Virus record (IMG/VR): IMGVR_UViG_3300022752_000016
Source of the DNA: a virus
Lineage: Duplodnaviria > Caudoviricetes
Direction: 5' to 3' (one strand)
Length of the DNA stretch: 64,000 nt
Both the position numbers and the translations under genes were made by a program. The notes beneath the pieces were generated by a model. It searched no databases and was not told the origin of the DNA. It saw only the letters and a program-made list of their open reading frames with translations. Numbering within the stretch: the stretch's first letter is position 1; each line of letters begins with the position of its first letter. This document shows, piece by piece, positions 47,367 through 64,000 of the stretch.

Positions 47367-47656
47367 ACAACGATATAATTTTAAACATATATTCTTGGGT
47401 AAAACAGGATTGGAAATCTAATCCTTTAAGATTTTTTATAGAATTATTGGCTTGGACTATAAGTATTGGTTGTGCCTTGATTATGGCACTAACTGTACCT
47501 AACCCTCCTCTTATGATATTATATCCATTGTGGATATTAGGATGTATACTGTATGCTTGGGCATCATACTCAAGAAAATCATTTGGTATGTTGGGAAATT
47601 ATTTGTTACTTACTTCAGTTGATATTATTGGATTAGCAAGGTTATTAATACAATGA
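47363..47656 (+). CDS. Small membrane protein (about 3 TM)
   Basis: Three hydrophobic stretches in 97 aa. Confidence 0.7.
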   Translation: MNNDIILNIYSWVKQDWKSNPLRFFIELLAWTISIGCALIMALTVPNPPLMILYPLWILGCILYAWASYSRKSFGMLGNYLLLTSVDIIGLARLLIQ

Positions 47657-50442: not shown

Positions 50443-51174
50443 ATGAAAGATTATTTGTTAGATTTGATTCAACATACTTATGGGTTGGGTGTGATTGAGT
50501 TAGTAAAAATTACAGGAACGAAAAAGTCCACAGAACTAAATGCAATCGCTGAGGATAAATCAGTTATTATTTCTGGTACTTTTAATACTGCTCTACCAGA
50601 GTTTGTAGGCGTGTTTGGTATGCCTAACTTAGGTAAACTTAAAACTATTCTTAGTTTTGATGATTATGATGATAAAGCTGTTATTTCTGTAACTACAAAA
50701 AATGAAGATGGTGTTGATGTACCTGCGTCTATTCACTTTGAAACAGGAGTAGGCGATTTTGTTAATGATTACAGATTAATGAGTAAAGTGTTAGTTGAAG
50801 ATAAAGTAAAACACGTAACCTTTAAAGGAACTACATGGGATGTTGAATTCGACCCAACTATCGCAGGTATACAGCGCCTCAAGAAACAAGCGCAGGCGCA
50901 TAATGAGGAGCCTTATTTCACCACGAAAACAGACAAGGGTGATCTTAAAATTTACTTTGGTGACCATAGTACTCACAATGGCAATTTCGTATTTCATCCT
51001 AGTGTAAACGGAACATTAAGTAAAAGTTGGAAGTGGCCTGTTAAAGTGTTTATTGCTATAATGGATTTACCTGGTGATAAAACTGTTAGAATCAGTGATA
51101 AAGGTGCCACTGAAGTTACTGTTAATAGTGGAATGGCAAGTTATCGTTATCTTTTCCCTGCACAAACAAAATGA
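50443..51174 (+). CDS. DNA polymerase sliding clamp (gp45-like)
   Basis: 243 aa, two-fold beta/alpha pattern, directly after PolB; clamp loader present in the window. Confidence 0.65.
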   Translation: MKDYLLDLIQHTYGLGVIELVKITGTKKSTELNAIAEDKSVIISGTFNTALPEFVGVFGMPNLGKLKTILSFDDYDDKAVISVTTKNEDGVDVPASIHFETGVGDFVNDYRLMSKVLVEDKVKHVTFKGTTWDVEFDPTIAGIQRLKKQAQAHNEEPYFTTKTDKGDLKIYFGDHSTHNGNFVFHPSVNGTLSKSWKWPVKVFIAIMDLPGDKTVRISDKGATEVTVNSGMASYRYLFPAQTK

Positions 51175-51551: not shown

Positions 51552-53087
51552 ATGCTTAAACAAGACAATCTTTCAAGTAAACATAATCCTGAATGGGCAT
51601 TGTTTTTACCTGCTATTAGTAGTTTTTATATTAGTGGATTGGGCAAACAACGTGAGGGTGAACAGTATTTTGACCCAGCACGTATACCAATTGGTTTTAA
51701 TAATGATGTTGAATGCTTAAATTTTCTTAACAGTAAACAAGGATTGTTTACATACAAATGGGGATTATATAGTGCTGGCCATGCCAATCTTGATACTAGT
51801 GTTATTGATAATGCTGAAAGCATTATAAGAAAACGTGAGAAGGGTACTTTCTTGTTAGGTGATAGTGGTGGCTTTCAGATTATGAAAGGCCAATGGCCTG
51901 CTGATTGGAAAGATATAAACTGTCCTAAAGCTATGAAACAACGACAAAAGGTGTTAAATTGGATGGACACATACATGGACTATGGAATGTGTTTAGATGT
52001 GCCAACACAAACACTACGTAACAAACACTTGTTAGATAAACATGGCATATCTACAATTGAAGAAGCAGTTAGGGCTACACATATCAATAATGAGTATTTT
52101 ATCCAACATCGTAATGGCGAATGTAAATTTCTCAACGTACTACAAGGATTGAATCATAAACAATCTGATGATTGGTACGATGAAATGAAGAAGTACTGTG
52201 ACCCAAAAGTTTATCCTAAAAACTATTTTAATGGTTGGGCTTTTGGTGGACAGACGAAAATTGACATACATCTTACATTAAAGCGTATGGTGAATATTAT
52301 TCACGATGGTCTGCTTGAAGAAGGCAAACACGACCTTATACATTGTTTGGGTACAAGCATTTTAGAATATGCTGTATTGTTTAGTGATATTCAAAGAGCA
52401 ATACGCAAATATCATAATCCAAAATTACAAATTACTTTTGATTGTGCTAGCCCATTTTTTAGTGCTGCTAAAGGTCTTGCTTATTTCTACACTAATATTC
52501 AACATAACAAGAAATGGGCATACAGCATGGAGAAAACTGCTGAAAAGAAAAGCTATGCTAATGATAGTCGCAAGTTTCGGGACGCTGTATTGCAAGATGG
52601 TATCCATAAGTTGTTTACAGATAGCCCTGTTACTGATAGAATGATGGTTCGTGATTTGTGTTACAGAGGGCAAGGGTTTATTGGAGCACATGGAAAAGAA
52701 ACTAAAACCAGTTGGGATACATTGAGTTATACGTTGTTACAGGCACATAATGTTTATCAACATATTGTAGCCGTACAAGAAGGCAATAGACAATATGATT
52801 CGGGTATTAAACCAAGTATGGTGTTAAGTCAATTTGATACAAAAGATTTCGGTAGTTTAGTTGATGACATTTTTAGTCTAAAAGATAGAAAGAAAAGTTT
52901 AGCATTACTTGATAAGTACGATAGTTTTTGGACACAAATGAAGTCAGGTAGTCAAGGGTTTAGTGGTAAGAAAACAGTAAATGCAAGTACAATGTTTGAT
53001 GAGTTATTTGAAGTAAGTGATGAACAATATGTTGATGAAGATAGTATTGACAGTGATGAATTAATATCTGAAATGTTAGGAGAATAA
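51552..53087 (+). CDS. tRNA-guanine transglycosylase-fold protein; probable DNA 7-deazaguanine insertase (DpdA-like)
   Basis: TGT motifs 'LGDSGGFQI', 'MCLDVP', 'NVLQG', 'GWAFGG', 'IHCLG', 'TFDCASP'; clustered with folE, queD and queE. Confidence 0.8.
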   Translation: MLKQDNLSSKHNPEWALFLPAISSFYISGLGKQREGEQYFDPARIPIGFNNDVECLNFLNSKQGLFTYKWGLYSAGHANLDTSVIDNAESIIRKREKGTFLLGDSGGFQIMKGQWPADWKDINCPKAMKQRQKVLNWMDTYMDYGMCLDVPTQTLRNKHLLDKHGISTIEEAVRATHINNEYFIQHRNGECKFLNVLQGLNHKQSDDWYDEMKKYCDPKVYPKNYFNGWAFGGQTKIDIHLTLKRMVNIIHDGLLEEGKHDLIHCLGTSILEYAVLFSDIQRAIRKYHNPKLQITFDCASPFFSAAKGLAYFYTNIQHNKKWAYSMEKTAEKKSYANDSRKFRDAVLQDGIHKLFTDSPVTDRMMVRDLCYRGQGFIGAHGKETKTSWDTLSYTLLQAHNVYQHIVAVQEGNRQYDSGIKPSMVLSQFDTKDFGSLVDDIFSLKDRKKSLALLDKYDSFWTQMKSGSQGFSGKKTVNASTMFDELFEVSDEQYVDEDSIDSDELISEMLGE

Positions 53088-53463: not shown

Positions 53464-53922
53464 ATGGATCAAAGACAAATAATGTTACAAGATAAAATTA
53501 ATCGTATAAAACAAGAAGCCAAACGTATGATTTGGGTAACTTTTCGTAAAGAAGGTATTCATAAATACCCAGCAGCTAGTGAAGATCCTAAGCTGAAAAC
53601 AGGAGATGAGTATGACGTTTCGTTTTTGGGTTACCCTCATAGGCATATATTTCATTTTACCGTTGGTATTGAAGTATTTCACAACGATAGAGATATTGAA
53701 TTTATACAATTCAAACGTTGGCTTGAACGATTGTATTCTGGCAACCAAGGTGTATTGTCGTTAGATTATAAAAGCTGCGAAATGATTAGCGATGACTTAT
53801 ACGTTACAATTGCTAATCGTTATCCAGAACGTGATGTCCATATCACTGTTAGTGAAGATGGCGAGAATGGCGCCACAATTTGTTACAACACAACTAAACC
53901 TAGCCTATCAATTAAAATATAA
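53464..53922 (+). CDS. QueD-like T-fold paralog (candidate DpdL-type CDG decarboxylase)
   Basis: 'FLGYPHRHIFHF', 'DRDIEF', 'SCEMI' and 'VSEDGENG' align to the QueD HGH, DF, T.EN and E.. motifs; distinct from the canonical QueD at 59865. Confidence 0.65.
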   Translation: MDQRQIMLQDKINRIKQEAKRMIWVTFRKEGIHKYPAASEDPKLKTGDEYDVSFLGYPHRHIFHFTVGIEVFHNDRDIEFIQFKRWLERLYSGNQGVLSLDYKSCEMISDDLYVTIANRYPERDVHITVSEDGENGATICYNTTKPSLSIKI

Positions 53923-53931
53923 AGGAAAATA

Positions 53932-54135
53932 ATGGCAAAAGTAAACTTTAAAAATAGTTCAACATATAACAAAATCTTTGAAGATTTAGAGAAGTATTTA
54001 GAATTTTGTAGAGAGTATGGGTACACATTTAATGAATCAGACCTATATACTAATAGGAGCAATTCATATCGTAATTACCAAAAACATATTACAGGTAAAC
54101 CAGTAAAAAATATGTGGGAAACAGATGGAAAATAA
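53932..54135 (+). CDS. Hypothetical protein
   Basis: 67 aa with RBS AAGGA. Confidence 0.7.
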   Translation: MAKVNFKNSSTYNKIFEDLEKYLEFCREYGYTFNESDLYTNRSNSYRNYQKHITGKPVKNMWETDGK

Positions 54136-54913
54136 TCAATATACTGTTGTATTAGTTACAGGTGGGTTTGACCCTATCCATAGTGGTCATATCGCTTACT
54201 TTAAAGCAGCAAAAGAATTAGGGCATCAATTAGTTGTTGGCCTAAATAGTGATGAATGGTTAGCTAGGAAAAAAGGTAGACCATTTATGCCATTGGCAGA
54301 ACGTGCTGCTATTATTAGTGAATTACGTGTTGTAGATGGTTATATAACTTTTGATGATAGCGATAATTCTGCTAAAAATGCAATTAAATATTGTCTAGAA
54401 AATACATTTAATAATGAGCGTATTATATTCGCTAACGGTGGGGATAGAACACAAGAAAATATTCCTGAAATGGAGATTGTAGATCCCAGACTAGAATTTT
54501 GGTTTAATGTTGGTGGCGATAACAAAATGAATTCTAGTAGTTGGATATTACAAGAATGGAAGGCTCCCAAAACAAATAGACAATGGGGTTATTATCGTGT
54601 ATTACATGAAGATGGTCCTAATGTAAAACTTAAAGAACTAACAGTAGAACCAGGTAAAAGTTTAAGTATGCAGAAGCATAATAAACGTAGTGAGTTTTGG
54701 TTCGTTAGTAAAGGTGAGGCTACTGTTAATACATTAAACTCAAAAAGTGATGTAGAACAATTAGGTGTTTATAATAAACATGAACATTTATTTGTACCAA
54801 ACGAACGTTGGCATCAATTATGTAATAATGGATCAGAACCATTAAAACTTATTGAAATCCAATATGGTGAACAATGTATTGAAGATGATATTGAAAGAAA
54901 AACACAAACATGA
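54125..54913 (+). CDS. HxGH sugar-phosphate nucleotidyltransferase (RfaE/TagD-like) fused to a mannose-6-P-isomerase-type cupin
   Basis: 'TGGFDPIHSGH', 'VGLNSD.WL.RKKGRP', 'FANGGDR', 'SSSWIL'; then 'RQWGYYRVL...KELTVEPGKSLSMQKH..RSEFW...WHQL...IEIQYG'. Confidence 0.85.
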   Translation: MENNQYTVVLVTGGFDPIHSGHIAYFKAAKELGHQLVVGLNSDEWLARKKGRPFMPLAERAAIISELRVVDGYITFDDSDNSAKNAIKYCLENTFNNERIIFANGGDRTQENIPEMEIVDPRLEFWFNVGGDNKMNSSSWILQEWKAPKTNRQWGYYRVLHEDGPNVKLKELTVEPGKSLSMQKHNKRSEFWFVSKGEATVNTLNSKSDVEQLGVYNKHEHLFVPNERWHQLCNNGSEPLKLIEIQYGEQCIEDDIERKTQT

Positions 54914-55077
54914 TTGATAAAGTATTTTGGGGTTCTATCATAGTGTTTTTTTGTATTGCTATTGTTTTAGTAATACAAGGTATACACGATCTAGATGAGT
55001 ATATTAGTAACTGTAAAGGGCTAGTTGTTAAAACTCCAGATGGCTGGGTTTGTTCTAATGCACAAAAGGTTAATTAA
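54910..55077 (+). CDS. Small single-pass membrane protein (55 aa; not in the ORF track)
   Basis: MIDKVFWGSIIVFFCIAIVLVIQG...CKG...GWVC...; fills the gap exactly with ATGA and TAATG coupling. Confidence 0.7.
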   Translation: MIDKVFWGSIIVFFCIAIVLVIQGIHDLDEYISNCKGLVVKTPDGWVCSNAQKVN

Positions 55078-56252
55078 TGCGTAAACTATATTATATGGGA
55101 TTGGAGCCTTATAAAGCACGTTATACATTACAATTACAAGAATGGAATCGTAGTGTATTTGAACGCAGGCGTATAAACTATCATATGGTTGAAGGAAAAA
55201 CCTTAGGCAATGATAAAGCTATAGTAATAGGACAAGTCTTAGATGCACATGGTAGGACATACTTTGGAATGAGCCAACTTATGAACTTAGTTCATTTAAT
55301 GAAATTAGGACAGGTTACCTCTAATGATGTAATTTATTTTGAGGATATGTTTCAGCCAGGCATAGAAAGTTTACCCTATATTTTAAATCAAATAGAAAAA
55401 AGACATAAGCCTAAGATATTTGTACGTTGTTTGGCACAAAGTATTGATCCAGATGACTTTGTACATGTATGGGGCATGAGTAAATGGATGGGTCATTATG
55501 AAAAAATGGTAGATAGTTTTGTAGATGGTGTACTAGCAAGTAATGAAGAAATGGTAGCACATATGAAGATTGCTGGTTGGACTAGTCCTATCTATAATAT
55601 ATCTGGATTGGCATTCGGTAAAGTAGAAGTTCAAAATAGAGTAAATAGTATTAAGCCCTTTGATGAAAGGGCGATGCGTGTAGTTTTTTCAGCGAGATGG
55701 GATCAGGAAAAACAGCCTGACTTTTACATGGACCTGATTGAAGCTTGGCACAATATTGAAGGACTTCCAAAGGTTGAATTTGCAGTGTGTAGTGGAAGTA
55801 AGCTACGGTCAAATAATCAAAGTTATATGGAACGCACATACAAATTAGTTGATGAAGGTAAACTTAAGTTATATGAAGATTTAGAAAAAAACGATTATTA
55901 TAATATTCTTAATGATAGTCGTTGTGTGTTTAACTGTGCGTTACAAGATTGGGTCAGTAATACAGTAAGTGAGGCTGATGCATTAGGATGTAATGTTTTA
56001 TACCCTGCATATCGTAGTTTTCCTGAAACCTTCTCCAACGACGCCTCTAGACTATATGTTCCATGGTCTATCAAAGATGCTATACTTAAATTAATTCCAT
56101 TACTAGAAAATCCACATAAAGATATTGGAAAAATTAGTGATTATACTGATAAAACAATAGATAGAATTTGTGATATACTTGAAGGTAATGGTAAACAATA
56201 TTTACGTATGGAAGTAGATTATCGCAAACATAATAGGGAATATAAATTTTAA
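55077..56252 (+). CDS. GT-B fold glycosyltransferase
   Basis: C-terminal 'FSARWDQEKQPD', 'YYNILNDSRCVF', 'SNTVSEADALGC.VLYP...SFPE' GT4-like nucleotide-sugar-binding region. Confidence 0.8.
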   Translation: MRKLYYMGLEPYKARYTLQLQEWNRSVFERRRINYHMVEGKTLGNDKAIVIGQVLDAHGRTYFGMSQLMNLVHLMKLGQVTSNDVIYFEDMFQPGIESLPYILNQIEKRHKPKIFVRCLAQSIDPDDFVHVWGMSKWMGHYEKMVDSFVDGVLASNEEMVAHMKIAGWTSPIYNISGLAFGKVEVQNRVNSIKPFDERAMRVVFSARWDQEKQPDFYMDLIEAWHNIEGLPKVEFAVCSGSKLRSNNQSYMERTYKLVDEGKLKLYEDLEKNDYYNILNDSRCVFNCALQDWVSNTVSEADALGCNVLYPAYRSFPETFSNDASRLYVPWSIKDAILKLIPLLENPHKDIGKISDYTDKTIDRICDILEGNGKQYLRMEVDYRKHNREYKF

Positions 56253-56330
56253 ATAAATAATTTTAATGTAAATAATTGTGACTAAAACCTTTAGTCAAGT
56301 CTATATATCCGTGTAAGGAAGGATTAAAAA

Positions 56331-57011
56331 ATGAGTTATAATAAAACTAAAACAGACCCTGAATTGGGTAAAAGAGTAAATGAGTACTTAGTAAAAATGG
56401 GCGTACAAACTCCCGCAGCGAAATCAAGACACGATAGAAAAACTCAAATTGAATTAATAGAGCAAAATTTTACTGCTATTATGAACATCTTAGGATTGGA
56501 TCTACATGATGATAGTTTAGCTGAAACTCCAAAACGTGTAGCAAAAATGTATGTAAATGAAATATTTTGGGGTTTAGACTATGAAGCTTTTCCTAAATGT
56601 ACCACAGTAAATAATAAAATGAAGTATAATGAAATGGTGGTAGAAAGAAATGTATCAGTTCAGAGCAATTGTGAGCATCATTTTGTGGTTATTGACGGTC
56701 TTGCTACTGTGGCATATGTACCTAAGGATAGAGTATTGGGTCTTAGCAAAATCAACAGAATTGTGGAGTATTTTAGTAAACGCCCTCAAATTCAAGAACG
56801 TTTAACAGAACAAATTTTTCATACATTACAATATATTCTTGATACAGAAGATGTTGCTGTTATGATTGATGCACAACATTACTGTGTAAAAAGCAGAGGT
56901 GTTGAGGATACAGGTAGTAGTACTGTAACAAGTCGTTTGGGTGGTGGATTTAAAAATGATGTTGCTGTGCGTAATGAATTTTACAGTATTGCAAGGAGTT
57001 CATCTAAATGA
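56331..57011 (+). CDS. folE: GTP cyclohydrolase I
   Basis: 'TPKRVAKMY', 'SNCEHHF', 'GLSKINRIV.YFSKRPQIQERLT', 'HYCVKSRGV'. Confidence 0.95.
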   Translation: MSYNKTKTDPELGKRVNEYLVKMGVQTPAAKSRHDRKTQIELIEQNFTAIMNILGLDLHDDSLAETPKRVAKMYVNEIFWGLDYEAFPKCTTVNNKMKYNEMVVERNVSVQSNCEHHFVVIDGLATVAYVPKDRVLGLSKINRIVEYFSKRPQIQERLTEQIFHTLQYILDTEDVAVMIDAQHYCVKSRGVEDTGSSTVTSRLGGGFKNDVAVRNEFYSIARSSSK

Positions 57012-57175
57012 GTTGTAATATCTGTAAAAAAGAGTATAGTCCCAATTGTGATTATAATCAGGGTAGATGCCCACATCATAGGCCTTTAATAACAAATCCT
57101 TATCCATTATGGTTAATAATTTTATTTGTAGCAGTTGTACTATTTTATAGTACTGGGAATAATTATGGGTTTTAA
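57008..57175 (+). CDS. Small Zn-finger plus transmembrane protein (55 aa; not in the ORF track)
   Basis: MSCNICKKEYSPNCDYNQGRCPHH followed by 'LWLIILFVAVVLFY'; ATGA coupling to folE. Confidence 0.65.
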   Translation: MSCNICKKEYSPNCDYNQGRCPHHRPLITNPYPLWLIILFVAVVLFYSTGNNYGF

Positions 57176-57398
57176 AAAACCTGAATTGCAAACTGCAACA
57201 GACATTATTTTTCAAGCTATATATGAAACTCATAGTAAATACAACGATGGTTTTACCCAGTTTGAAATTAAAAAAGATTTATATAAGCTTAAGTGGATAA
57301 TGGATGATTATTTTAAAAAAGCAGATAAGTTTCAAGGGGAAGATGAATGGGTTGAAAAGATATTACAACAAAGAGTATGGGAGTTACTTAAAAAATGA
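57165..57398 (+). CDS. Hypothetical protein
   Basis: ATG at 57165 (MGFKKPEL...); 77 aa. Confidence 0.65.
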   Translation: MGFKKPELQTATDIIFQAIYETHSKYNDGFTQFEIKKDLYKLKWIMDDYFKKADKFQGEDEWVEKILQQRVWELLKK

Positions 57399-58234
57399 CA
57401 GAGAAAATATTAATAATGGGACTACCAGGTTCGGGTAAAACATATTTTGCAGAACGTTTAAAAAAATATTTAGAGATAAATGGAGAAAAGTCTTTATCCA
57501 AAATTGATTCGGATCGCCCTTATCCAATGCTTAATGTAAAAGTAGATTGGTTTAACGCAGATGATATACGTAAAAAATTTAATGATTGGGACTTTAGTAA
57601 AGAAGGTAGAATCCGTCAAAGTTTGCGTATGGCAGAATTTGCAATTCGTTGTAATGGGGAATATGTAATTTGTGATTTTGTTGCTCCTTTACCTGAAATG
57701 AGAAATAATTTTAAAGCTGATTGGACCATATGGATGGATACAATTGATAAAGGTCGGTATAAAGATACGAACAAAGCATTTGTGCCCCCTGACATTTATG
57801 ATTTTCGAATTAATGAACAAAATTGTGAACGTTGGGTACCTTATGTTGGTGAAATGATTATTAGGAAAAAGCGTAGACCAATCTTTGATTGGCGTAAAGA
57901 AACAGTGCAAATGTTAGGTCGTTGGCAACCATGGCATCTTGGGCATCGTGCTTTGTTTGAACGCTTGCTAAGTAAGACAGGACAAGTTATAATACAAATA
58001 CGTGATGTACAAGGATGGCAAAATAGTAACCCGTTTAGTGTTGAAGAAGTTAAAAATTATATAAAACGTGATTTAGATCCATTATATCAAGGTCAATATG
58101 AGATTATGTTAGTTCCAAATATTGTACACATTGGTTGGGGCCGGGGAGTAGGATATACAAGTGGAGAAGAACTTTTTGATGAAGAAATAACAAAAATAAG
58201 TGCAACAGAAATAAGGAAACAACTTGGTTTATAG
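57395..58234 (+). CDS. Adenylyl-sulfate kinase-like P-loop domain fused to an HxGH nucleotidyltransferase
   Basis: 'ILIMGLPGSGKT', 'NADDIR', 'DFSKEGRIRQ', 'ICDFVAP' (CysC-like); C-terminal 'LGRWQPWHLGH...SATEIR'. Confidence 0.8.
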   Translation: MTEKILIMGLPGSGKTYFAERLKKYLEINGEKSLSKIDSDRPYPMLNVKVDWFNADDIRKKFNDWDFSKEGRIRQSLRMAEFAIRCNGEYVICDFVAPLPEMRNNFKADWTIWMDTIDKGRYKDTNKAFVPPDIYDFRINEQNCERWVPYVGEMIIRKKRRPIFDWRKETVQMLGRWQPWHLGHRALFERLLSKTGQVIIQIRDVQGWQNSNPFSVEEVKNYIKRDLDPLYQGQYEIMLVPNIVHIGWGRGVGYTSGEELFDEEITKISATEIRKQLGL

Positions 58235-58235
58235 T

Positions 58236-58910
58236 ATGTGGGAAAATATAAAATTACCATTGGTAATACTTTCTAGTCCAAGATCTGGTTCTACTGTTTT
58301 ACTAGACACTATTCGTAATTATTTAAATGACAATAATGTAAATTTTACAGACATAGGCAGTGAACCAATTACACATGAAGATCGGTCTTTTGAACGTTAT
58401 GAAAAATTAAACCACAATTTAACAACAAATAATTTCATTTGTAAACTTCATGTTTTTCAACTTAAAACAATTTATCCAATGTTTTTTTTTGATAATATAC
58501 TTCAAGGAAAATACTTTTTAATAAGGATTAGGAGAAAAAATATTGCAGAACAATTAGTAAGTCTTTACATAAGTCATGTGTATGGAGAAAAAGAAATTTT
58601 CCAAAATTCAAAAGAATCAAATAAAAAATACATTGAAAATAAAAAAATTCCAATTGATAAATTTATTATGGAACAAGTAATAATACGTGGCATGCACCAT
58701 ATACATCTTTTAGAAAATTTTAATTGTAAATTTGATTTAGATTTATGGTACGAGGATATAATATTCAACTCAAAGAAGTATTACAAACCAAAACCTCCTA
58801 GTAATTATAAAGAATTAGTTGATAGAGTTAGTAACATTGTACAAGATAAAACTTTTGACTCGTTAATAAAAACTATAAAAGTTCATCCATTGACCCTTAA
58901 ATCGACATAA
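58236..58910 (+). CDS. Sulfotransferase-family protein (Stf0-like)
   Basis: 5'-PSB loop 'ILSSPRSGSTVL', 'CKLH', 3'-PB-like 'IRRKNIAEQLVSLY', 'WYEDI'. Confidence 0.7.
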   Translation: MWENIKLPLVILSSPRSGSTVLLDTIRNYLNDNNVNFTDIGSEPITHEDRSFERYEKLNHNLTTNNFICKLHVFQLKTIYPMFFFDNILQGKYFLIRIRRKNIAEQLVSLYISHVYGEKEIFQNSKESNKKYIENKKIPIDKFIMEQVIIRGMHHIHLLENFNCKFDLDLWYEDIIFNSKKYYKPKPPSNYKELVDRVSNIVQDKTFDSLIKTIKVHPLTLKST

Positions 58911-58913
58911 AAA

Positions 58914-59588
58914 ATGTTTACCAATTTAAAATTACCTATTGTTATACTTTCTAGTCCAAGATCTGGTTCTAATGTTCTTTATGATACTATTTGTAATTAT
59001 TTAAGTGATAATAAAATACACTATGTTGGTACAGGAGTTGAACCTTTATTATTTGATAATTATAATGATACAAAAAGTTTAAAAAAGTTTGATGAAATAA
59101 TAGCAACGAACAATTTTGTAACAAAAATTCATGCTATACATTTAAAAAAGTTATACCCTAATTATTTTGTACAAAATATTTTGCAAAAAAAATATACCAT
59201 TGTTAGGATAAGACGAAGAAATATAATTGAACAATTAATTAGTCTATACATTTGCACACTTATTGATATTATCAATAAAGGAGATGAACTTATTTGGTCA
59301 AACACTAAAAAAAGTAATAGATTGATTGAAGATAAAAAAATTCCCATTTATGAAGATGTTTTAAAAAAGGTTATAAATTATGGAATATTAGCAATAACAT
59401 ACTGTGAAAATTTTAATTACAATTTTGATTTAGACTTATATTATGAAGATTTATCGTTTAATTCAAAAAAACACTTTAAACCAACAAAAAAACCTAGTAA
59501 CTATGAAGAATTGCACACAATTTTTAGCGATCATTTAGCAAAAATTGATTTTAAACAGAACAACGATATATTAAATACCCTTTTATGA
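58914..59588 (+). CDS. Sulfotransferase-family protein, tandem paralog of 58236..58910
   Basis: 'ILSSPRSGSNVL', 'TKIH', 'IRRRNIIEQLISLY', 'YYEDL', 'KPSNYEEL'. Confidence 0.7.
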   Translation: MFTNLKLPIVILSSPRSGSNVLYDTICNYLSDNKIHYVGTGVEPLLFDNYNDTKSLKKFDEIIATNNFVTKIHAIHLKKLYPNYFVQNILQKKYTIVRIRRRNIIEQLISLYICTLIDIINKGDELIWSNTKKSNRLIEDKKIPIYEDVLKKVINYGILAITYCENFNYNFDLDLYYEDLSFNSKKHFKPTKKPSNYEELHTIFSDHLAKIDFKQNNDILNTLL

Positions 59589-59785
59589 TGAATTCAAAAG
59601 ATAATAGTATTATACTACGAATGTCGGAACTAATGAAACCTATTGATAAACAAATAATGATGACGAATGATGATAAAGAATTACTTATGCTGGCGTGTGC
59701 TATGTTACAACGTGTAACAGAAATATTTGATAACACATTAACAGTAACTGGAAGAAAAAAAATGTTTAGCGATTTGATTAAATAG
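59585..59785 (+). CDS. Hypothetical protein
   Basis: 66-aa ATGA-coupled ORF. Confidence 0.7.
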   Translation: MMNSKDNSIILRMSELMKPIDKQIMMTNDDKELLMLACAMLQRVTEIFDNTLTVTGRKKMFSDLIK

Positions 59786-59789
59786 TATT

Positions 59790-59858
59790 AGTGGTCTAAG
59801 GCATTCATCCCACTTTAAATATTCTGCATGTCATCAAACTTACTCAGCTTAAAGGAGG
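59790..59858 (+). promoter_or_regulatory. Candidate structured RNA leader (H-type pseudoknot, preQ1-I-like) upstream of queD
   Basis: P1 AGTGG(59790-94)/CCACT(59810-14); P2 GGCAT(59800-04)/ATGTC(59828-32); alternative CTTTAA(59813-18)/TTAAAG(59849-54) pairing covers the Shine-Dalgarno. Confidence 0.4.
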
Positions 59859-59864
59859 CAAGAG

Positions 59865-60335
59865 GTGGCAAAATTTATTTCAACAAAAACATATAACCAA
59901 ATCGGTCCAGTGGCATATCGTCAATGGCGTGCGGATAGTCATTGTAATTTGATACATGGATATGCATTGAGTTTTCATTTTGAATTTGAAAGTGAAACGC
60001 TTGATGCTAGAAACTGGGTAGTAGATTTTGGTAGTCTTAAACCTTTAAAAGGATTATTGGAAGAATGGTTCGATCATACGCTACTAGTAGCAGAAGATGA
60101 TCCTATGAAAAATGAATTATCTAGATTGGGAGAATTGGGACTAGCAAAAATTACAATGGTAGAACGAACAGGGTGTGAAGGTATTGCTGATTGGTTATAC
60201 GAATACATTAATACTTGTTGGTTAAAAGATTATGGGTATGATGAAAGAGTGTGGTGTTGTAAAGTGGAAGTAAGAGAGACTGATGCTAACATGGCAATGC
60301 GTGTTGGAAGTAGGTCAGATAATGAATTCGTTTAA
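59865..60335 (+). CDS. queD: 6-carboxy-5,6,7,8-tetrahydropterin synthase
   Basis: 'HCNLIHGY', 'WVVDFGSLK', 'FDHTLLV', 'GCEGIA', 'VEVRET..N.A'; GTG start with RBS AAGGAGG. Confidence 0.85.
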   Translation: MAKFISTKTYNQIGPVAYRQWRADSHCNLIHGYALSFHFEFESETLDARNWVVDFGSLKPLKGLLEEWFDHTLLVAEDDPMKNELSRLGELGLAKITMVERTGCEGIADWLYEYINTCWLKDYGYDERVWCCKVEVRETDANMAMRVGSRSDNEFV

Positions 60336-60346
60336 AAAGGAAACAA

Positions 60347-60718
60347 ATGAATAAAGTTTTATCAGACCAAAAGCAGTTTATGACAGCTTGTGGTCAAACA
60401 GTAGATACATATAATTTAGAGCAATTCAATTTGTATAAATCATTAATTGGAGAAGAAGTAGGTGAACTCATTCATGCTTGTCAACTAAATGACAGAGTAG
60501 AACAATTAGATGCACTTATTGATATTTTAGTTGTTACGGCAGGAGCAATACATAGTTTAGGGGTTGATGGTGAAGCTGCTTGGAACGAAGTTATGCGAAC
60601 AAATTTTGCAAAAGTTGACCCAGTTACTGGAAAAGTACGCCGTCGTGAAGATGGTAAAATTCTTAAACCTGATGGTTGGACACCACCACAACTACAATCA
60701 TTTGTAAAAAATATTTAA
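60347..60718 (+). CDS. MazG-like/HisE-like NTP pyrophosphohydrolase
   Basis: 'LIGEEVGEL...EQLDALIDILVV...WNEVMRTN..K...RREDGKILKPDGW'. Confidence 0.85.
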   Translation: MNKVLSDQKQFMTACGQTVDTYNLEQFNLYKSLIGEEVGELIHACQLNDRVEQLDALIDILVVTAGAIHSLGVDGEAAWNEVMRTNFAKVDPVTGKVRRREDGKILKPDGWTPPQLQSFVKNI

Positions 60719-60720
60719 TT

Positions 60721-61560
60721 ATGTCACAGTTAAAAGTAAGCGAACTATTCTATAGTATCCAAGGTGAGGGCCGATATATGGGTGTACCAAGTGTGTTCCT
60801 TCGTGTGTTTGGATGTAACTTTACATGTGGTGGATTTGGTATGCCACGAGGACAAACTAGTAATCAACGTAATGAAATTAAGGTAGAATTATTTAAAGAT
60901 TATAAAGAACTACCATTGGTATCTACTGGGTGTGATAGTTATGCAAGTTGGGATCCTAGGTTTAAACATCTTAGCCCAGTTCTTGATACAAATACAATCG
61001 TAACTAGTATACTAGATTTATTACCTACTGGGTATTGGCAAGGAGAACATTTAGTTATTACAGGTGGCGAACCATTGTTAGGTTGGCAACGTAATTATCC
61101 TGATTTACTAGGACATGATTTTATGGAACATTTAAGTGATATTACGTTTGAAACTAACGGTACGCAAAAATTAACAAATGTTTTTTATGATTATCTTAAG
61201 GATTGGTCAAAAAGTAAAAACGGTGAAGTAACATTTAGTGTAAGTGCAAAGTTACCAAACAGCGGTGAAAAGTGGGATGAAGCAATCAATCCAGATATAG
61301 TATGTCAATATCAAGAAGTTGGCTATACATATTTAAAATTTGTAGTAGCAACTGAAGATGATATTGAAGATGCCGAAAAAGCAGACAGCGAATTTAGAAA
61401 TGCAGGATTTGTTGGGCCCACTTATATTATGCCTGTTGGTGGTGTTGATAGTGTATATAATTTAAACGCAAAGAATGTAGCATTAGCAGCTATGAAACGA
61501 GGTTGGCGTTATAGTGATAGACTGCAAGTACTACTATTTAAAAACGAATGGGGAACATAA
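60721..61560 (+). CDS. queE: 7-carboxy-7-deazaguanine synthase (radical SAM)
   Basis: 'ELFYSIQGEG...GVPSVFLRVFGCNFTC...CDS', 'VITGGEPLL', 'FETNGT', 'SVSAKL', 'YLKFVV', 'IMPVG', 'SDRLQ'. Confidence 0.92.
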   Translation: MSQLKVSELFYSIQGEGRYMGVPSVFLRVFGCNFTCGGFGMPRGQTSNQRNEIKVELFKDYKELPLVSTGCDSYASWDPRFKHLSPVLDTNTIVTSILDLLPTGYWQGEHLVITGGEPLLGWQRNYPDLLGHDFMEHLSDITFETNGTQKLTNVFYDYLKDWSKSKNGEVTFSVSAKLPNSGEKWDEAINPDIVCQYQEVGYTYLKFVVATEDDIEDAEKADSEFRNAGFVGPTYIMPVGGVDSVYNLNAKNVALAAMKRGWRYSDRLQVLLFKNEWGT

Positions 61561-61742
61561 TGAAAACATATATAATTACTAGAAATCAATACGAAAAAAT
61601 TAAAGAGGTGTTTGAAATGTACGATACAATTGACTATGTAAAAATACATGAAGAAAGTACGTCTGGTATAGGACCAACAACAACATTAGAATTTAATCCA
61701 AGCTTTGTTAAAGTTGATATTACTGATGTTGAAAGTTGGTAA
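61560..61742 (+). CDS. Hypothetical protein
   Basis: TAATG-coupled start; 60 aa. Confidence 0.65.
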   Translation: MKTYIITRNQYEKIKEVFEMYDTIDYVKIHEESTSGIGPTTTLEFNPSFVKVDITDVESW

Positions 61743-61930
61743 TGTTAGTAGGAACTGACTATAAATTTTTATTATTTCCCAAACGCTGTAGTTTAACAAA
61801 CAAGTTATTATGGCTTTGTTATGCATATGAGCATATTCATTTATACACAGGACTTGGGGAACCTTTATTTGAATACAAATATTATGATAAGAAGCATTAT
61901 TTGGTAAATAAGTTAAAGGGTGTATTGTGA
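61742..61930 (+). CDS. Hypothetical protein
   Basis: TAATG-coupled start; 62 aa. Confidence 0.55.
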   Translation: MLVGTDYKFLLFPKRCSLTNKLLWLCYAYEHIHLYTGLGEPLFEYKYYDKKHYLVNKLKGVL

Positions 61931-63255
61931 GAACTTACGACAAACGGATTGGTTTCATTGTTAGTAGTCAAACACTAATCCCACATGGTGGTATAGGACA
62001 ATTTGCAAAAAGTTTTTGTGAGTTAATGAACGAACATAATATTAAAGTTGATATTATTACAGATAAAGAACCCAATGATAAAGACTTTGTAAAATCACTT
62101 AATACTAAAGTTATAACGCCGTCAGTGTCATTACCTTATACGAATCATAGTAATATTTTTATGTATGGAGATACATATTGCTATGAGCGTATGGCTAACT
62201 TTCGTAATGCTATTATACAGGCATTAGAAAATAATTTATATGACGCATTCATATGCAACACATATGAAAGTGTTCAAGTTGCAAGTACAATTGGTTTAGA
62301 GGATGTAATTAAAATTATAGCCTACACTCATTTGGAAAGTCAAATATTTAAGGATACTAAAAATCCCTTTTTAGCATCTACCAATCAAATGATGCGTATG
62401 CAACTTAAGTTGAATGGTATATACATAGGAACACAAAGTAAGTTCAATCAGTTAACCATTGGAGATAGTGCTTATCATTTACCTATTCCTATTACAGAAA
62501 AGAAATTACTTAATAAGTTTGATAATGCTAGGGAGGGTGTTTTGTTTATTGGACGCTGGGAAGAAGGCAAGAATCCTGAACTGTTTATTGAATTGATAGA
62601 GCAAACAAAACTCCCAGCAAAAGTAATGACAAGCCCAAATGGTGTTAAAAAGTTTGAAGATAGGTTAAAAAGGATTAATGCAAAGTATGAAATACGTGCT
62701 AGCATTATTGGACAGGAGAAAGTAGATTTTATTACAAGTGCTAGAATAGCTTTTAATCCTAGTATTGTTGAAAGTTATGGTATGGCTTTTTACGAACAAA
62801 TGATACAAATGCCTACTGTAGTATTAGAAAATCAAAGATGGACAAATAATTTTGATTCAAACTATTTCTATACGTGTAATAAAAAGAACATGGCAGAAAT
62901 AGTCATGGGGTTATACAAGAATGTGCCAACATCTGATGTTTGGTATAAAAATGGTATTATTGAAAAGTATCGTAGGATAGAAGATCAGGTGTTTCATAAA
63001 TGGAACAATTGCTTTAGTGATTTTAAATGTAGGGAATCAAACTCAACCACAGCTAAAATATGTAATGAAACTACAGTTAAACTATCAGATTATATTAGTA
63101 GCCTAAAAAGGAATTTAATTTGTATAGACGATATCCGTAGCGTATTAACTAATAAACATAAGTTTCGTATAATTTACACAGACAATGATACATATCTAAC
63201 GAAAGACCCTAGTTTTGAACCAACAGATACAGAGGATTTATTTGAAGGATTATGA
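61927..63255 (+). CDS. GT-B fold glycosyltransferase (GT4-like)
   Basis: 'PHGGIGQF', 'LFIGRWEEGKNPE', 'AFNPSIVESYGMAFYE'. Confidence 0.82.
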   Translation: MRTYDKRIGFIVSSQTLIPHGGIGQFAKSFCELMNEHNIKVDIITDKEPNDKDFVKSLNTKVITPSVSLPYTNHSNIFMYGDTYCYERMANFRNAIIQALENNLYDAFICNTYESVQVASTIGLEDVIKIIAYTHLESQIFKDTKNPFLASTNQMMRMQLKLNGIYIGTQSKFNQLTIGDSAYHLPIPITEKKLLNKFDNAREGVLFIGRWEEGKNPELFIELIEQTKLPAKVMTSPNGVKKFEDRLKRINAKYEIRASIIGQEKVDFITSARIAFNPSIVESYGMAFYEQMIQMPTVVLENQRWTNNFDSNYFYTCNKKNMAEIVMGLYKNVPTSDVWYKNGIIEKYRRIEDQVFHKWNNCFSDFKCRESNSTTAKICNETTVKLSDYISSLKRNLICIDDIRSVLTNKHKFRIIYTDNDTYLTKDPSFEPTDTEDLFEGL

Positions 63256-64000
63256 AGAAAATACTAATAACAGGAAATAGTGGTTATATTGGATCGCATC
63301 TTACCAAGCTACTAAGCAAAGATTATGAAGTACATGGATTAGATAAAAAAGATTTGATTGTACCAGTAAAAGAATTTTACAAATTAGATATTAACCGAAA
63401 ATTTGTATTGCCTATAGAATTTGATTGTGTAGTGCATTTAGCAGCATTGGTTAATGTGGGCGAAAGTGAAACCAATTCAATAAATTATTACATCACCAAT
63501 GTAAATGGTACAATGAATGTATTAGCAAACATTAAAACTAAAAACTTTATATTTTCTAGTACAGGAGCAGCGGAATTTTGTAAAAGTGCATATGGTGTAA
63601 CAAAACGATCAGCAGAATATATTATAAAAGAATATTGCACACTTCATTCACAAACTCCATATACTATTTTTAGATTTTATAATGTCATCGGTAATGATGG
63701 AATTAACCCAACAAATCCAGACGGATTATTTTATAATTTAATTAAAGCTAAAGATACAGGTACTTTTACTATATATGGCAAAGATTATGAAACACCTGAT
63801 GGCACTTGTTTACGTGACTATGTACATGTTAATGAAATTTGTCATGCAATTAAAACCGCAATAGAAAAACCAAGTAATAGTATTGAATGTCTTGGACATG
63901 GTGTAGGATACAGCGTTAAAGAAATTGTAAATAAATTTCAAATTGTAAATCAGTGTGATTTTGATATTAAATATGGACTAAGACGATTAGGTGATTTACC
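63252..64000 (+). CDS. NAD-dependent epimerase/dehydratase (GalE-like), 3'-truncated; not in the ORF track
   Basis: MKKILITGNSGYIGSHL (GxxGxxG), 'VVHLAALVNVGES', 'FSSTGA', YxxxK 'YGVTK', 'RFYNV', 'RDYVHV'; open to the window end. Confidence 0.88.
   Translation, partial: MKKILITGNSGYIGSHLTKLLSKDYEVHGLDKKDLIVPVKEFYKLDINRKFVLPIEFDCVVHLAALVNVGESETNSINYYITNVNGTMNVLANIKTKNFIFSSTGAAEFCKSAYGVTKRSAEYIIKEYCTLHSQTPYTIFRFYNVIGNDGINPTNPDGLFYNLIKAKDTGTFTIYGKDYETPDGTCLRDYVHVNEICHAIKTAIEKPSNSIECLGHGVGYSVKEIVNKFQIVNQCDFDIKYGLRRLGDL

Follow-up and report, generated by a model that had tools for sequence, protein, structure and literature searches.

Layout of the gene run

The DNA analysed here is a 64,000-nucleotide stretch (the window; IMG/VR record IMGVR_UViG_3300022752_000016) from an uncultured freshwater giant phage with an AT-rich genome (about 27–45% GC) of ~ 205 kb, and the subject of this study is a run of genes in its last part, in which 7-deazaguanine genes alternate with genes for glycosyltransferases, sugar activation and sulfotransferase-like proteins. 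Every gene from the family-B DNA polymerase (47653–50361) to just beyond the window end lies on the + strand, and the stops and starts along positions 54125–64000, and along the genes upstream, mostly overlap or nearly abut. The run terminates with an epimerase gene that ends ~ 76 bases beyond the window, after which the strand flips, as was read from the same DNA in other assemblies. A preliminary description of this DNA had presented 54125–64000 as one co-oriented, tightly coupled run, and the strand and spacing of the genes agree with that. The families that it named (a nucleotidyltransferase–cupin fusion, two GT-B glycosyltransferases, a fusion of an adenosine 5'-phosphosulfate (APS) kinase with an HxGH domain, two sulfotransferases, MazG, a GalE-like epimerase and the Que genes) were all recovered by profile, motif or fold. 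It also listed dpdA among the genes to be checked; a DpdA-like gene does exist, but upstream at 51552–53087 and outside 54125–64000. Judged by its predicted gene content, the block makes up most of an island for 7-deazaguanine modification of DNA, beside replication genes (Table 1). A megablast search of the block against cultured phages gave no match.

The deazaguanine core

FolE, QueD and QueE together convert GTP into 7-carboxy-7-deazaguanine (CDG), and candidates for all three are present in the run (Table 1). For QueE, the NCBIfam models matched 60721–61560 at E values of 1e-10 to 1e-13, all below their cut-offs, while Pfam was silent, and the identity of the protein was clear only in the phage family library (phrog_2076, E 1.5e-52). 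Its N-terminal cysteines are spaced Cx3Cx34C, with a 34-residue insert.

The DpdA-like protein gave no Pfam or PDB match as a single sequence. When a profile was prepared from the query and ten diverse relatives, 44 of 44 PDB matches were tRNA-guanine transglycosylases (TGTs; best E 0.0017), with an alignment spanning the DSGGFQ stretch (general-base Asp) to FDC (nucleophile Asp). Residues D104 (LLGDSGGFQ) and D297 (ITFDCASP) were invariant in 11 diverse members and aligned with TDSGGFQV and MFDCV of the Z. mobilis TGT. The EST35_0316 protein of the Pseudomonas jumbo phage PA5oct is 35% identical to the window protein. These sequence comparisons place 51552–53087 in a distant DpdA-like branch of the TGT superfamily, for which base-exchange activity is predicted.

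Product P0153 carries the segment FLGYPHRHIFHF at residues 54–65, which reads L-GYP-HRH-I-F and fits the DpdL signature LxxxHRHxF, a motif that replaces CxxxHGH of QueD-like T-fold proteins (PMC10516641). DpdL, a paralogue of QueD, has been put forward as the enzyme that decarboxylates CDG in phages with DpdA, FolE, QueD and QueE and without QueC (PMC10516641). A tblastn search with the window DpdL hit Cellulophaga phage phiST where CGPG_00067 lies (E 1e-9), and Acidovorax phage ACP17 with 55% identity. The QueC PP-loop motif SGGxDS was not found in any frame of the 64-kb window, which is part of the ~ 205-kb genome. Since a DpdA-like gene and a DpdL gene lie upstream and the window has no QueC motif, the island is predicted to be of the QueC-less DpdA/DpdL type, as in phiST, whose known product is 2'-deoxy-7-deazaguanosine (dDG).

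Linkage of the glycosyltransferase GT1 to DpdA and DpdL

The first of the two glycosyltransferases, GT1, was studied in related loci that were collected as 80 retrieved with the DpdA-like protein and the best 80 retrieved with GT1, and scored against the window genes. These loci are close relatives (72–99% identity), and distant homologues were sampled individually. Wherever the sequence of a related locus continued for 4.5 kb or more upstream of GT1, DpdA and DpdL were present as well (122/122), and GT1 itself was found in every related locus that reached far enough. The GT1 family is large, with 791 representatives at 50% identity and thousands of 90%-identity clusters in metagenomes. Four homologues of 29–40% identity were taken from the 50%-identity representatives, and all four adjoin QueE plus QueD/PTPS and/or FolE; a DpdL homologue was detectable near three of them. 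The backgrounds of these distant homologues vary, one being a phage with a fusion of a family-A polymerase and a uracil-DNA glycosylase and one an element with a RES-domain gene and a resolvase.

Cultured phages displayed the same association. The gene order is gp123–GT1–DpdL–QueE in ACP17 and DpdA–GT1–DpdL in PA5oct; Synechococcus phage BUCT-ZZ01 has FolE, the second glycosyltransferase (GT2), an unassigned 416-residue open reading frame (ORF), DpdL and GT1, and in Xanthomonas phage BUDD GT1 lies ~ 1.6 kb from DpdL. The linkage held in 122 of 122 loci, in the four homologues of low identity and in cultured phages; GT1 therefore belongs to the module as a constant component across distant phages and is not a passenger.

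In the element with the resolvase (L178:1111–7858), a DpdL–GT1–QueE run and an opposite-strand DpdA-like gene adjoin the RES-domain and resolvase genes, and mobile elements other than phages may thus be among the carriers of the deazaguanine–GT1 module. A scan of a genome collection with GT1 gave eight matches, all of them contigs of metagenome-assembled genomes, with no isolate genome and no clue to the host. The longer of these contigs have the phage layout polB–DpdA–DpdL–GT1 and look like mis-binned phage.

Table 1. Features of the gene run, with positions in the window and the evidence for each assignment.
Feature	Position	Strand	Evidence
DpdA-like DNA transglycosylase, TGT superfamily, 511 aa (P0030)	51552..53087	+	Family profile against PDB; catalytic motifs
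DpdL, QueD paralogue, proposed CDG decarboxylase (P0153)	53464..53922	+	Signature motif; tblastn
Conserved 67-aa ORF between DpdL and the sugar genes	53932..54135	+	Kept in most related loci, 45–73% identity
HxGH nucleotidyltransferase (RfaE-domain-II-like)/PMI-type cupin fusion, probable nucleoside diphosphate (NDP)-sugar maker	54125..54913	+	CTP_transf_like E 7e-14; rfaE_dom_II 8e-21; cupin E 3e-23
GT1, GT4-like (retaining-type) GT-B glycosyltransferase	55077..56252	+	Weak Glycos_transf_1 (Pfam); profile; AlphaFold model
FolE, GTP cyclohydrolase I	56331..57011	+	Pfam E 1.2e-61; NCBIfam NF006824, 321 bits, above cut-off
KinNT, APS-kinase-like P-loop domain plus minimal NMNAT-like HxGH nucleotidyltransferase	57395..58234	+	Pfam; 2yvu match; Foldseek; phrog_10255 E 9e-41
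Sulfotransferase-like ST1, 224 aa	58236..58910	+	Motifs; family profile
Sulfotransferase-like ST2, ST1 paralogue	58914..59588	+	Motifs; family profile
QueD, CPH4 synthase	59865..60335	+	PTPS E 3.9e-16; phrog_2389 E 2e-41
MazG-like nucleotide pyrophosphohydrolase	60347..60718	+	PRA-PH E 4e-12; phrog_671 E 3e-37
QueE, radical-SAM CDG synthase, unusual cysteine spacing	60721..61560	+	phrog_2076 E 1.5e-52
GT2, second putative GT-B glycosyltransferase	61927..63255	+	Glycos_transf_1 E 2.5e-5, below cut-off
GalE-like SDR epimerase, full length 274 aa	63252..64000 plus ~ 76 bases	+	Epimerase E 1e-30; galE E 4e-44 on full-length copy L001:14339–15163, below curated cut-off

Fold of GT1 and its possible acceptor

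The Pfam match of GT1 to Glycos_transf_1 is weak, and the family profile searched against the PDB retrieved GT4 enzymes (WlaC, E 5e-5). An AlphaFold model generated from a 46-sequence alignment had a predicted local distance difference test (pLDDT) score of 94. Foldseek searches with this model returned BshA, MshA, PimA and glycogen synthase at E values of 1e-9 to 2e-12, SenB and LmbT were also among the best PDB matches, and the best named viral match was the ACP17 protein. On the basis of the model, GT1 is confidently assigned a GT4-like GT-B fold.

Whether GT1 would act on DNA was considered next, and here two observations weigh against DNA as the acceptor. The T4 beta- and alpha-glucosyltransferases (BGT and AGT) were absent from the top 50 PDB matches of the model, and the isoelectric point (pI) of GT1 is near-neutral, at 6.4. 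With such a pI and no T4 BGT in the top 50, a DNA acceptor is left without positive support. A cyanophage protein named 'DNA alpha-GT' ranked 27th in BFVD (TM 0.53), and several of the top structural matches use small-molecule acceptors. The modelled fold and the pI do not decide between the free base and DNA as the acceptor.

One interpretation of these data is that making or inserting the base requires GT1 but that the sugar is later lost, the final DNA carrying plain dDG as in phiST; the glycosylated free base might serve, for example, as a transient, soluble or non-toxic intermediate or as a handle for DpdA. The small-molecule acceptors of the matches BshA, MshA, SenB and LmbT and the near-neutral pI are in keeping with this, and so is the outcome of producing dpdA and dpdL without GT1 in E. 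coli, which gave no dDG. In addition, the DpdA family keeps an Asp aligned to the AFDE Asp of the Z. mobilis TGT, which presumably reads the N1/N2 face of the base and would then argue against a bulky N2 substituent. Note, however, that phiST makes dDG without GT1, that no sugar-removing hydrolase was identified in the core module, and that PA5oct is targeted by nucleases described as sensors of hypermodified DNA. Loss of the sugar before the DNA is finished is considered quite improbable, and a sugar retained on the base in virion DNA is preferred.

The sugar-supply genes and GT2

Twenty-three loci continue for 2.5 kb past QueE, and in 22 of them QueE is followed by GT2 and/or an epimerase; both genes are near-constant within the family of related loci. 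The preliminary description had made co-occurrence of the glycosyltransferase and Que genes in relatives a condition of its reading, and with the constancy of GT1 this comes out in its favour. A sister clade (GT1 63–69% identical) has an SDR epimerase directly after GT1, and the GT2 homologue of BUCT-ZZ01 (38% identity) lies inside the cluster, between FolE and the ORF upstream of DpdL. Pairs of a glycosyltransferase and an epimerase have been proven in the gene clusters by which phages glycosylate their DNA (bioRxiv 10.1101/2023.12.21.572611). The nucleotidyltransferase/cupin fusion was full-length in 56 of 130 related loci, and in many relatives a further RfaE-II-like transferase stands on its own between FolE and QueD.

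Two occurrences outside such clusters weigh against a joint function of these genes with the deazaguanine core. The GT2 genes of Xanthomonas phages BUDD and X1 are separated from DpdL by ~ 40 kb and stand well away from the cluster. In cyanophage S-SSM7, the nucleotidyltransferase half stands alone after gp43; the annotation of the 14 kb shown lists no Que gene, and tblastn matched none there.

A kinase fusion and two sulfotransferase-like proteins

The N-terminal domain of the fusion termed KinNT matched Pfam APS_kinase above the cut-off (E 7e-7) and aligned to the archaeal APS kinase 2yvu (E 3e-4), the FSxExR stretch included and CDFVAP kept. The 24 best Foldseek matches of the KinNT model were APS kinases or APS-kinase domains; the pLDDT of this model is 67 overall, with 80–90 in the N-terminal part and poor values in the C-terminal half. 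The C-terminal 114 residues contain the HxGH motif GRWQPWHLGH and the sequence ISATEIR, characteristic of HxGH/ISATxIR nucleotidyltransferases. A profile of this domain retrieved NadM-type nicotinamide mononucleotide (NMN) adenylyltransferases (E 1e-6), phosphopantetheine adenylyltransferase (PPAT) and pantothenate synthetase, and no ATP sulfurylase among PDB entries up to E 10, which speaks against a role in sulfate activation.

Assignment of the C-terminal domain to the Sat-type or CysDN ATP sulfurylases failed, its nearest relatives being NMN adenylyltransferases (NMNATs). A NadR-type nicotinamide-riboside kinase/NMNAT is not favoured either, the kinase half being APS-kinase-like by motif and fold. 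The order of domains and genes is that of human PAPSS1/2 combined with NodH, Stf0 or CurM-ST, that is, an APS-kinase domain first, an HxGH nucleotidyltransferase second, and then enzymes with both motifs for 3'-phosphoadenosine 5'-phosphosulfate (PAPS). Unlike PAPSS1/2, the transferase domain in the window is ~ 114 residues long and NMNAT-like rather than a Sat-type ATP sulfurylase. By sequence, KinNT thus appears to resemble the halves of a PAPS synthase in layout, with a sulfurylase half that fails membership.

The ST1 and ST2 proteins are paralogues, 47% identical over their alignment. Neither gave a Pfam match itself; metagenomic homologues carry PF09037 (Stf0) or PF13469 (Sulfotransfer_3) and the name 'NodH'. 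A 26-member family profile gave only three matches in the PDB, namely Stf0, CurM-ST and OLS-ST (E 0.003–0.1). The 5'-phosphosulfate loop SSPRSGS (PRSGS/T) and the 3'-phosphate motif RRRNIIEQLIS (RxxxxxQxxS) aligned to those of Stf0 and CurM-ST, and R16, G18, R101 and S110 were invariant across the 26 sequences. The pI values of GT1 (6.4), ST1 (9.1) and ST2 (8.9) are too weak as a hint of DNA binding. ST2 was sought by tblastn and by a pattern scan of phage records and viral contigs, and nothing was found. A search for hidden ST-like proteins among the unannotated variable genes of relatives, using a hidden Markov model of the family, recovered the known cluster only.

Linkage of this cassette to the island was then scored in the 76 loci that span FolE to QueD. 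Neither component was present in 51 of them, KinNT alone in 20, both in four and a sulfotransferase alone in one, giving KinNT in 24/76 and sulfotransferases in 5/76. KinNT is directly upstream of a sulfotransferase in the window and in three listed loci that bear both, which suggests that the two are coupled, though these lineages are not independent.

The low frequencies weigh against a place for the cassette in the modification pathway, as do its occurrences elsewhere. Relatives of the sulfotransferases with 27–36% identity occur in other phage-like islands together with 2-oxoglutarate (2OG) oxygenases, a halogenase, AdoMet decarboxylase and homing endonucleases, and these distant loci gave no match to any Que-cluster gene of the window. 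KinNT is a widespread viral family, and in the related genomes L017 and L065 it is located elsewhere. The full-length fusion was detected at 34–37% identity in Sano-like siphophages of Xylella, Stenotrophomonas and Xanthomonas (hits H15–H29), with no Que gene annotated or matched nearby; the copy in Xylella phage Sano (L013, 8001–8738) bears the bare annotation 'kinase', and none of the genes annotated in the Sano region shown is a sulfotransferase. For the sulfotransferases, the co-occurrence with Que genes that the preliminary description had set as a condition is not well supported, given the 5/76 count and the distant islands. KinNT with ST1/ST2 is a strain-variable, sporadic cassette.

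It could be that KinNT is not a sulfate activator but an enzyme of NAD- or CoA-type cofactor metabolism (adenylyltransferase plus ribose kinase), or the maker of a PAPS-like donor other than for sulfate, in which case the sulfotransferase-fold proteins ST1 and ST2 would transfer another group. The Campylobacter Cj1416/Cj1415 pair makes such a PAPS-like donor for phosphoramidate. This explanation accommodates the NadM- and PPAT-like C-terminal domain, with its lack of sulfurylase matches, and the 20 of 24 KinNT loci that are without a sulfotransferase. However, the N-terminal domain keeps the FSxExR and CDFVAP motifs of APS kinases as well as their fold, ST1 and ST2 keep both the 5'-phosphosulfate and the 3'-phosphate motifs, and the order of kinase then transferase is that of animal PAPS synthase. 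A donor or cofactor unrelated to sulfate is regarded as somewhat unlikely. Most probably, the cassette provides a nucleotide donor phosphorylated at the 3' position, either PAPS or a PAPS-like one, and would transfer the group of this donor to an acceptor.

A variable region after the DNA polymerase

The corresponding interval of the relatives contains inosine monophosphate dehydrogenase (IMPDH)/GMP-reductase-like genes, phosphoribosyltransferases, SufE and S-adenosylmethionine (SAM) synthetase, all of which would plausibly support deazapurine synthesis. It further holds Bax1-I, 2OG oxygenases, a class II aldolase, a CoA-transferase and a radical-SAM/SPASM enzyme. Homing genes of the GIY-YIG, NUMOD3 and endonuclease VII types are scattered through it (L018:7425–8402, L084:11153–11995, L059:15830–16486 and L086:19019–19582), which fits a mosaic island content. 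Accessory genes of many kinds gather in this hot spot downstream of the DNA polymerase, so that mere proximity is weak evidence that the variable genes belong to the pathway. This tells against including them, and for this reason the genes were ranked by the constancy of their linkage. Across the relatives, the variable content looks like the outcome of an arms race in which restriction systems and nucleases that recognise modified DNA are the opponents.

Such a region raises the possibility that action on DNA is confined to the deazaguanine genes and GT1. The nucleotidyltransferase/cupin fusion, GT2, the epimerase, KinNT and the sulfotransferases would then be independent accessory genes that were placed here by the hot spot; their targets would be a glycan or lipid of the host surface, which they remodel, or proteins of the virion, which they glycosylate and sulfate. 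The unrelated accessory genes and homing endonucleases of the interval are what this would lead one to expect, and the stray occurrences described above fit as well: the small nucleotidyltransferase of S-SSM7, the sulfotransferases in islands that match none of the Que-cluster genes, KinNT in siphophages such as Sano and elsewhere in L017 and L065, and the remote GT2 of BUDD and X1. The sugar genes themselves argue the other way, with the Que run closed by GT2 and/or the epimerase in 22/23 loci, the epimerase directly after GT1 in the sister clade, GT2 after FolE within the BUCT-ZZ01 cluster, and the glycosyltransferase–epimerase pair proven in phage DNA glycosylation (bioRxiv 10.1101/2023.12.21.572611). 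Wholly independent accessory genes are considered unlikely. The other option raised in the preliminary description, sulfation of a glycan on virion or host, may still apply to the accessory genes.

Tubercidin and toyocamycin biosynthesis employs a phosphoribosyltransferase and a GMP-reductase-like enzyme that act on the deazapurine. An IMPDH/GMP-reductase gene with a phosphoribosyltransferase lies between GT1 and QueE at L023:14048–15151, at L026:14762–15334 and in many other loci, and in BUCT-ZZ01 an annotated xanthine-guanine phosphoribosyltransferase adjoins QueE. By analogy, this hints at a nucleotide-level route in some phages. A SAM synthetase (L074:20807–21553) and a SufE-like protein (L025:16374–16787) adjoin QueE or QueD in relatives and may serve the radical-SAM step.

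Comparison with known systems

The closest described counterpart of the core, the dDG cluster of phiST, which is of the DpdL/DpdA3 type (PMC10516641), shares FolE, QueD, QueE, a DpdL with LxxxHRHxF, a TGT-superfamily DpdA and a MazG-like gene, is likewise without QueC and also lies beside the DNA polymerase. It differs in having no match to GT1 and no glycosyltransferase, sugar-activating gene or sulfotransferase annotated in the cluster, and its DpdA has 259 residues, compared with 511 in the window. The DNA of phiST carries plain dDG (PMC10516641), and a phage that has DpdL, has no GT1 match and makes plain dDG weighs against a glycosylated product in the window phage. The dpdA and dpdL genes of ACP17, and those of phiST, gave no dDG in E. 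coli, and a further enzyme was suggested by the authors (PMC10516641).

PA5oct and ACP17 have the DpdA–GT1–DpdL triad with QueE beside the DNA polymerase, as in the window. Unlike the window, their clusters gave no second glycosyltransferase, epimerase, nucleotidyltransferase/cupin, KinNT or sulfotransferase in tblastn searches with the window genes. The DNA of PA5oct resists enzymes that cut at G-containing sites and is attacked by nucleases that sense hypermodified DNA, the chemistry of the modification being uncharacterised (PMC12191111).

Clusters for pyrimidine glycosylation (T4 glucosyl-5-hydroxymethylcytosine; glycosyltransferase–epimerase clusters from metaviromes, bioRxiv 10.1101/2023.12.21.572611; glycosyl-5-hydroxycytosine, PMC13326640) resemble the island in combining a base-modifying core with one or more glycosyltransferases, a partner epimerase, phage-encoded synthesis of NDP-sugars and a site among replication genes. 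They act, however, on cytosine or thymine derivatives with a hydroxyl handle, whereas the core in the window is for a purine, 7-deazaguanine, and GT1 is GT4-like, unlike T4 AGT and BGT. Neither bioRxiv 10.1101/2023.12.21.572611 nor PMC13326640 mentions a sulfotransferase or sulfation.

The huimycin and dapiramicin pathways provide FolE, QueD and QueE homologues together with a glycosyltransferase that works on a free 7-deazapurine. HuiG attaches a sugar to the 2-amino group of the 7-deazapurine (PMC7439116), and the dapiramicins are modified likewise (bioRxiv 10.64898/2026.04.15.718813). In contrast to the island, these are actinomycete secondary metabolites made from preQ0, with QueC present, without DpdA and with a product that is not in DNA; the likeness of HuiG to GT1 is one of described role and not of sequence comparison.

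A proposed pathway

The explanation favoured here, at a probability of roughly 55%, is that the island makes a glycosylated 7-deazaguanine in virion DNA and that the KinNT/sulfotransferase cassette is a strain-variable addition. FolE, QueD and QueE would take GTP to CDG, DpdL would decarboxylate CDG and DpdA would insert the base. GT1 would put a sugar on the deazaguanine, either on the free base ahead of insertion by DpdA, comparable to the action of HuiG at the 2-amino group, or on the base already in DNA. The nucleotidyltransferase/cupin fusion and the GalE-like epimerase would supply the activated sugar, and GT2 may add a second sugar or modify a second site. The virion DNA would most likely carry glycosylated 7-deazaguanine rather than plain dDG. 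A chemical point against this pathway is that plain 7-deazaguanine, the proposed DpdL product, is without an obvious hydroxyl to glycosylate; speculatively, decarboxylation leaves an electron-rich C7 that could accept a C-glycoside. The failed synthesis of dDG with ACP17 dpdA and dpdL and the modification of G in PA5oct both fit an extra step.

In the preliminary description, a 7-deazaguanine bearing sugar or sulfate had been put forward. Its sugar half is upheld, glycosylated 7-deazaguanine being well supported by the gene neighbourhood; its sulfate half is not, and sulfation of a glycosylated 7-deazaguanine is weakly supported. The acceptor of the cassette may be the DNA-linked sugar, a step for which the genomic evidence is weak. 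That the DNA glycan made by GT1 and GT2 is sulfated by ST1 and ST2 with a donor from the PAPS-synthase-like fusion, giving a sulfated, glycosylated purine, is judged very doubtful. We know of no report of a sulfate ester on a DNA base in nature.

All eight 7-deazaguanine derivatives that a 2023 survey tallied in phage DNA have small groups at position 7 or none (PMC10516641). No glycosylated or sulfated 7-deazaguanine in DNA was found in the literature searched, and the glycosylated phage DNA bases found there were all pyrimidines. From the constant association of GT1 with DpdA and DpdL, a purine that bears a sugar is predicted in DNA, and this prediction could explain both the absent product of ACP17 dpdA plus dpdL in E. 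coli and the G modification of PA5oct, a phage of Pseudomonas aeruginosa. The window contributes the linkage frequencies that split core from optional genes, and the negative result on sulfurylase membership of KinNT. Among the loci compared it is the most elaborate version, with two glycosyltransferases, sugar activation, an epimerase and a self-contained sulfation-type cassette.

Other genes of the island

The MazG gene was present in just 5 of 159 related loci. In one relative (L002), ST2 is identical to that of the window and the neighbouring genes from FolE to QueD are ~ 100% identical, and the segment L002:4874–7041 has Vut_1 (a YhhQ-type queuosine-precursor transporter) after QueD and a DAO-family FAD oxidoreductase after MazG, neither of which is in the window; the difference in gene content therefore points to swapping of genes within the island at the level of strains. 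The 243-residue gene (50443–51174) that separates the DNA polymerase gene from DpdA is conserved as far as PA5oct, where its homologue is annotated as a virion structural protein on the basis of mass spectrometry, an odd site for a structural gene.

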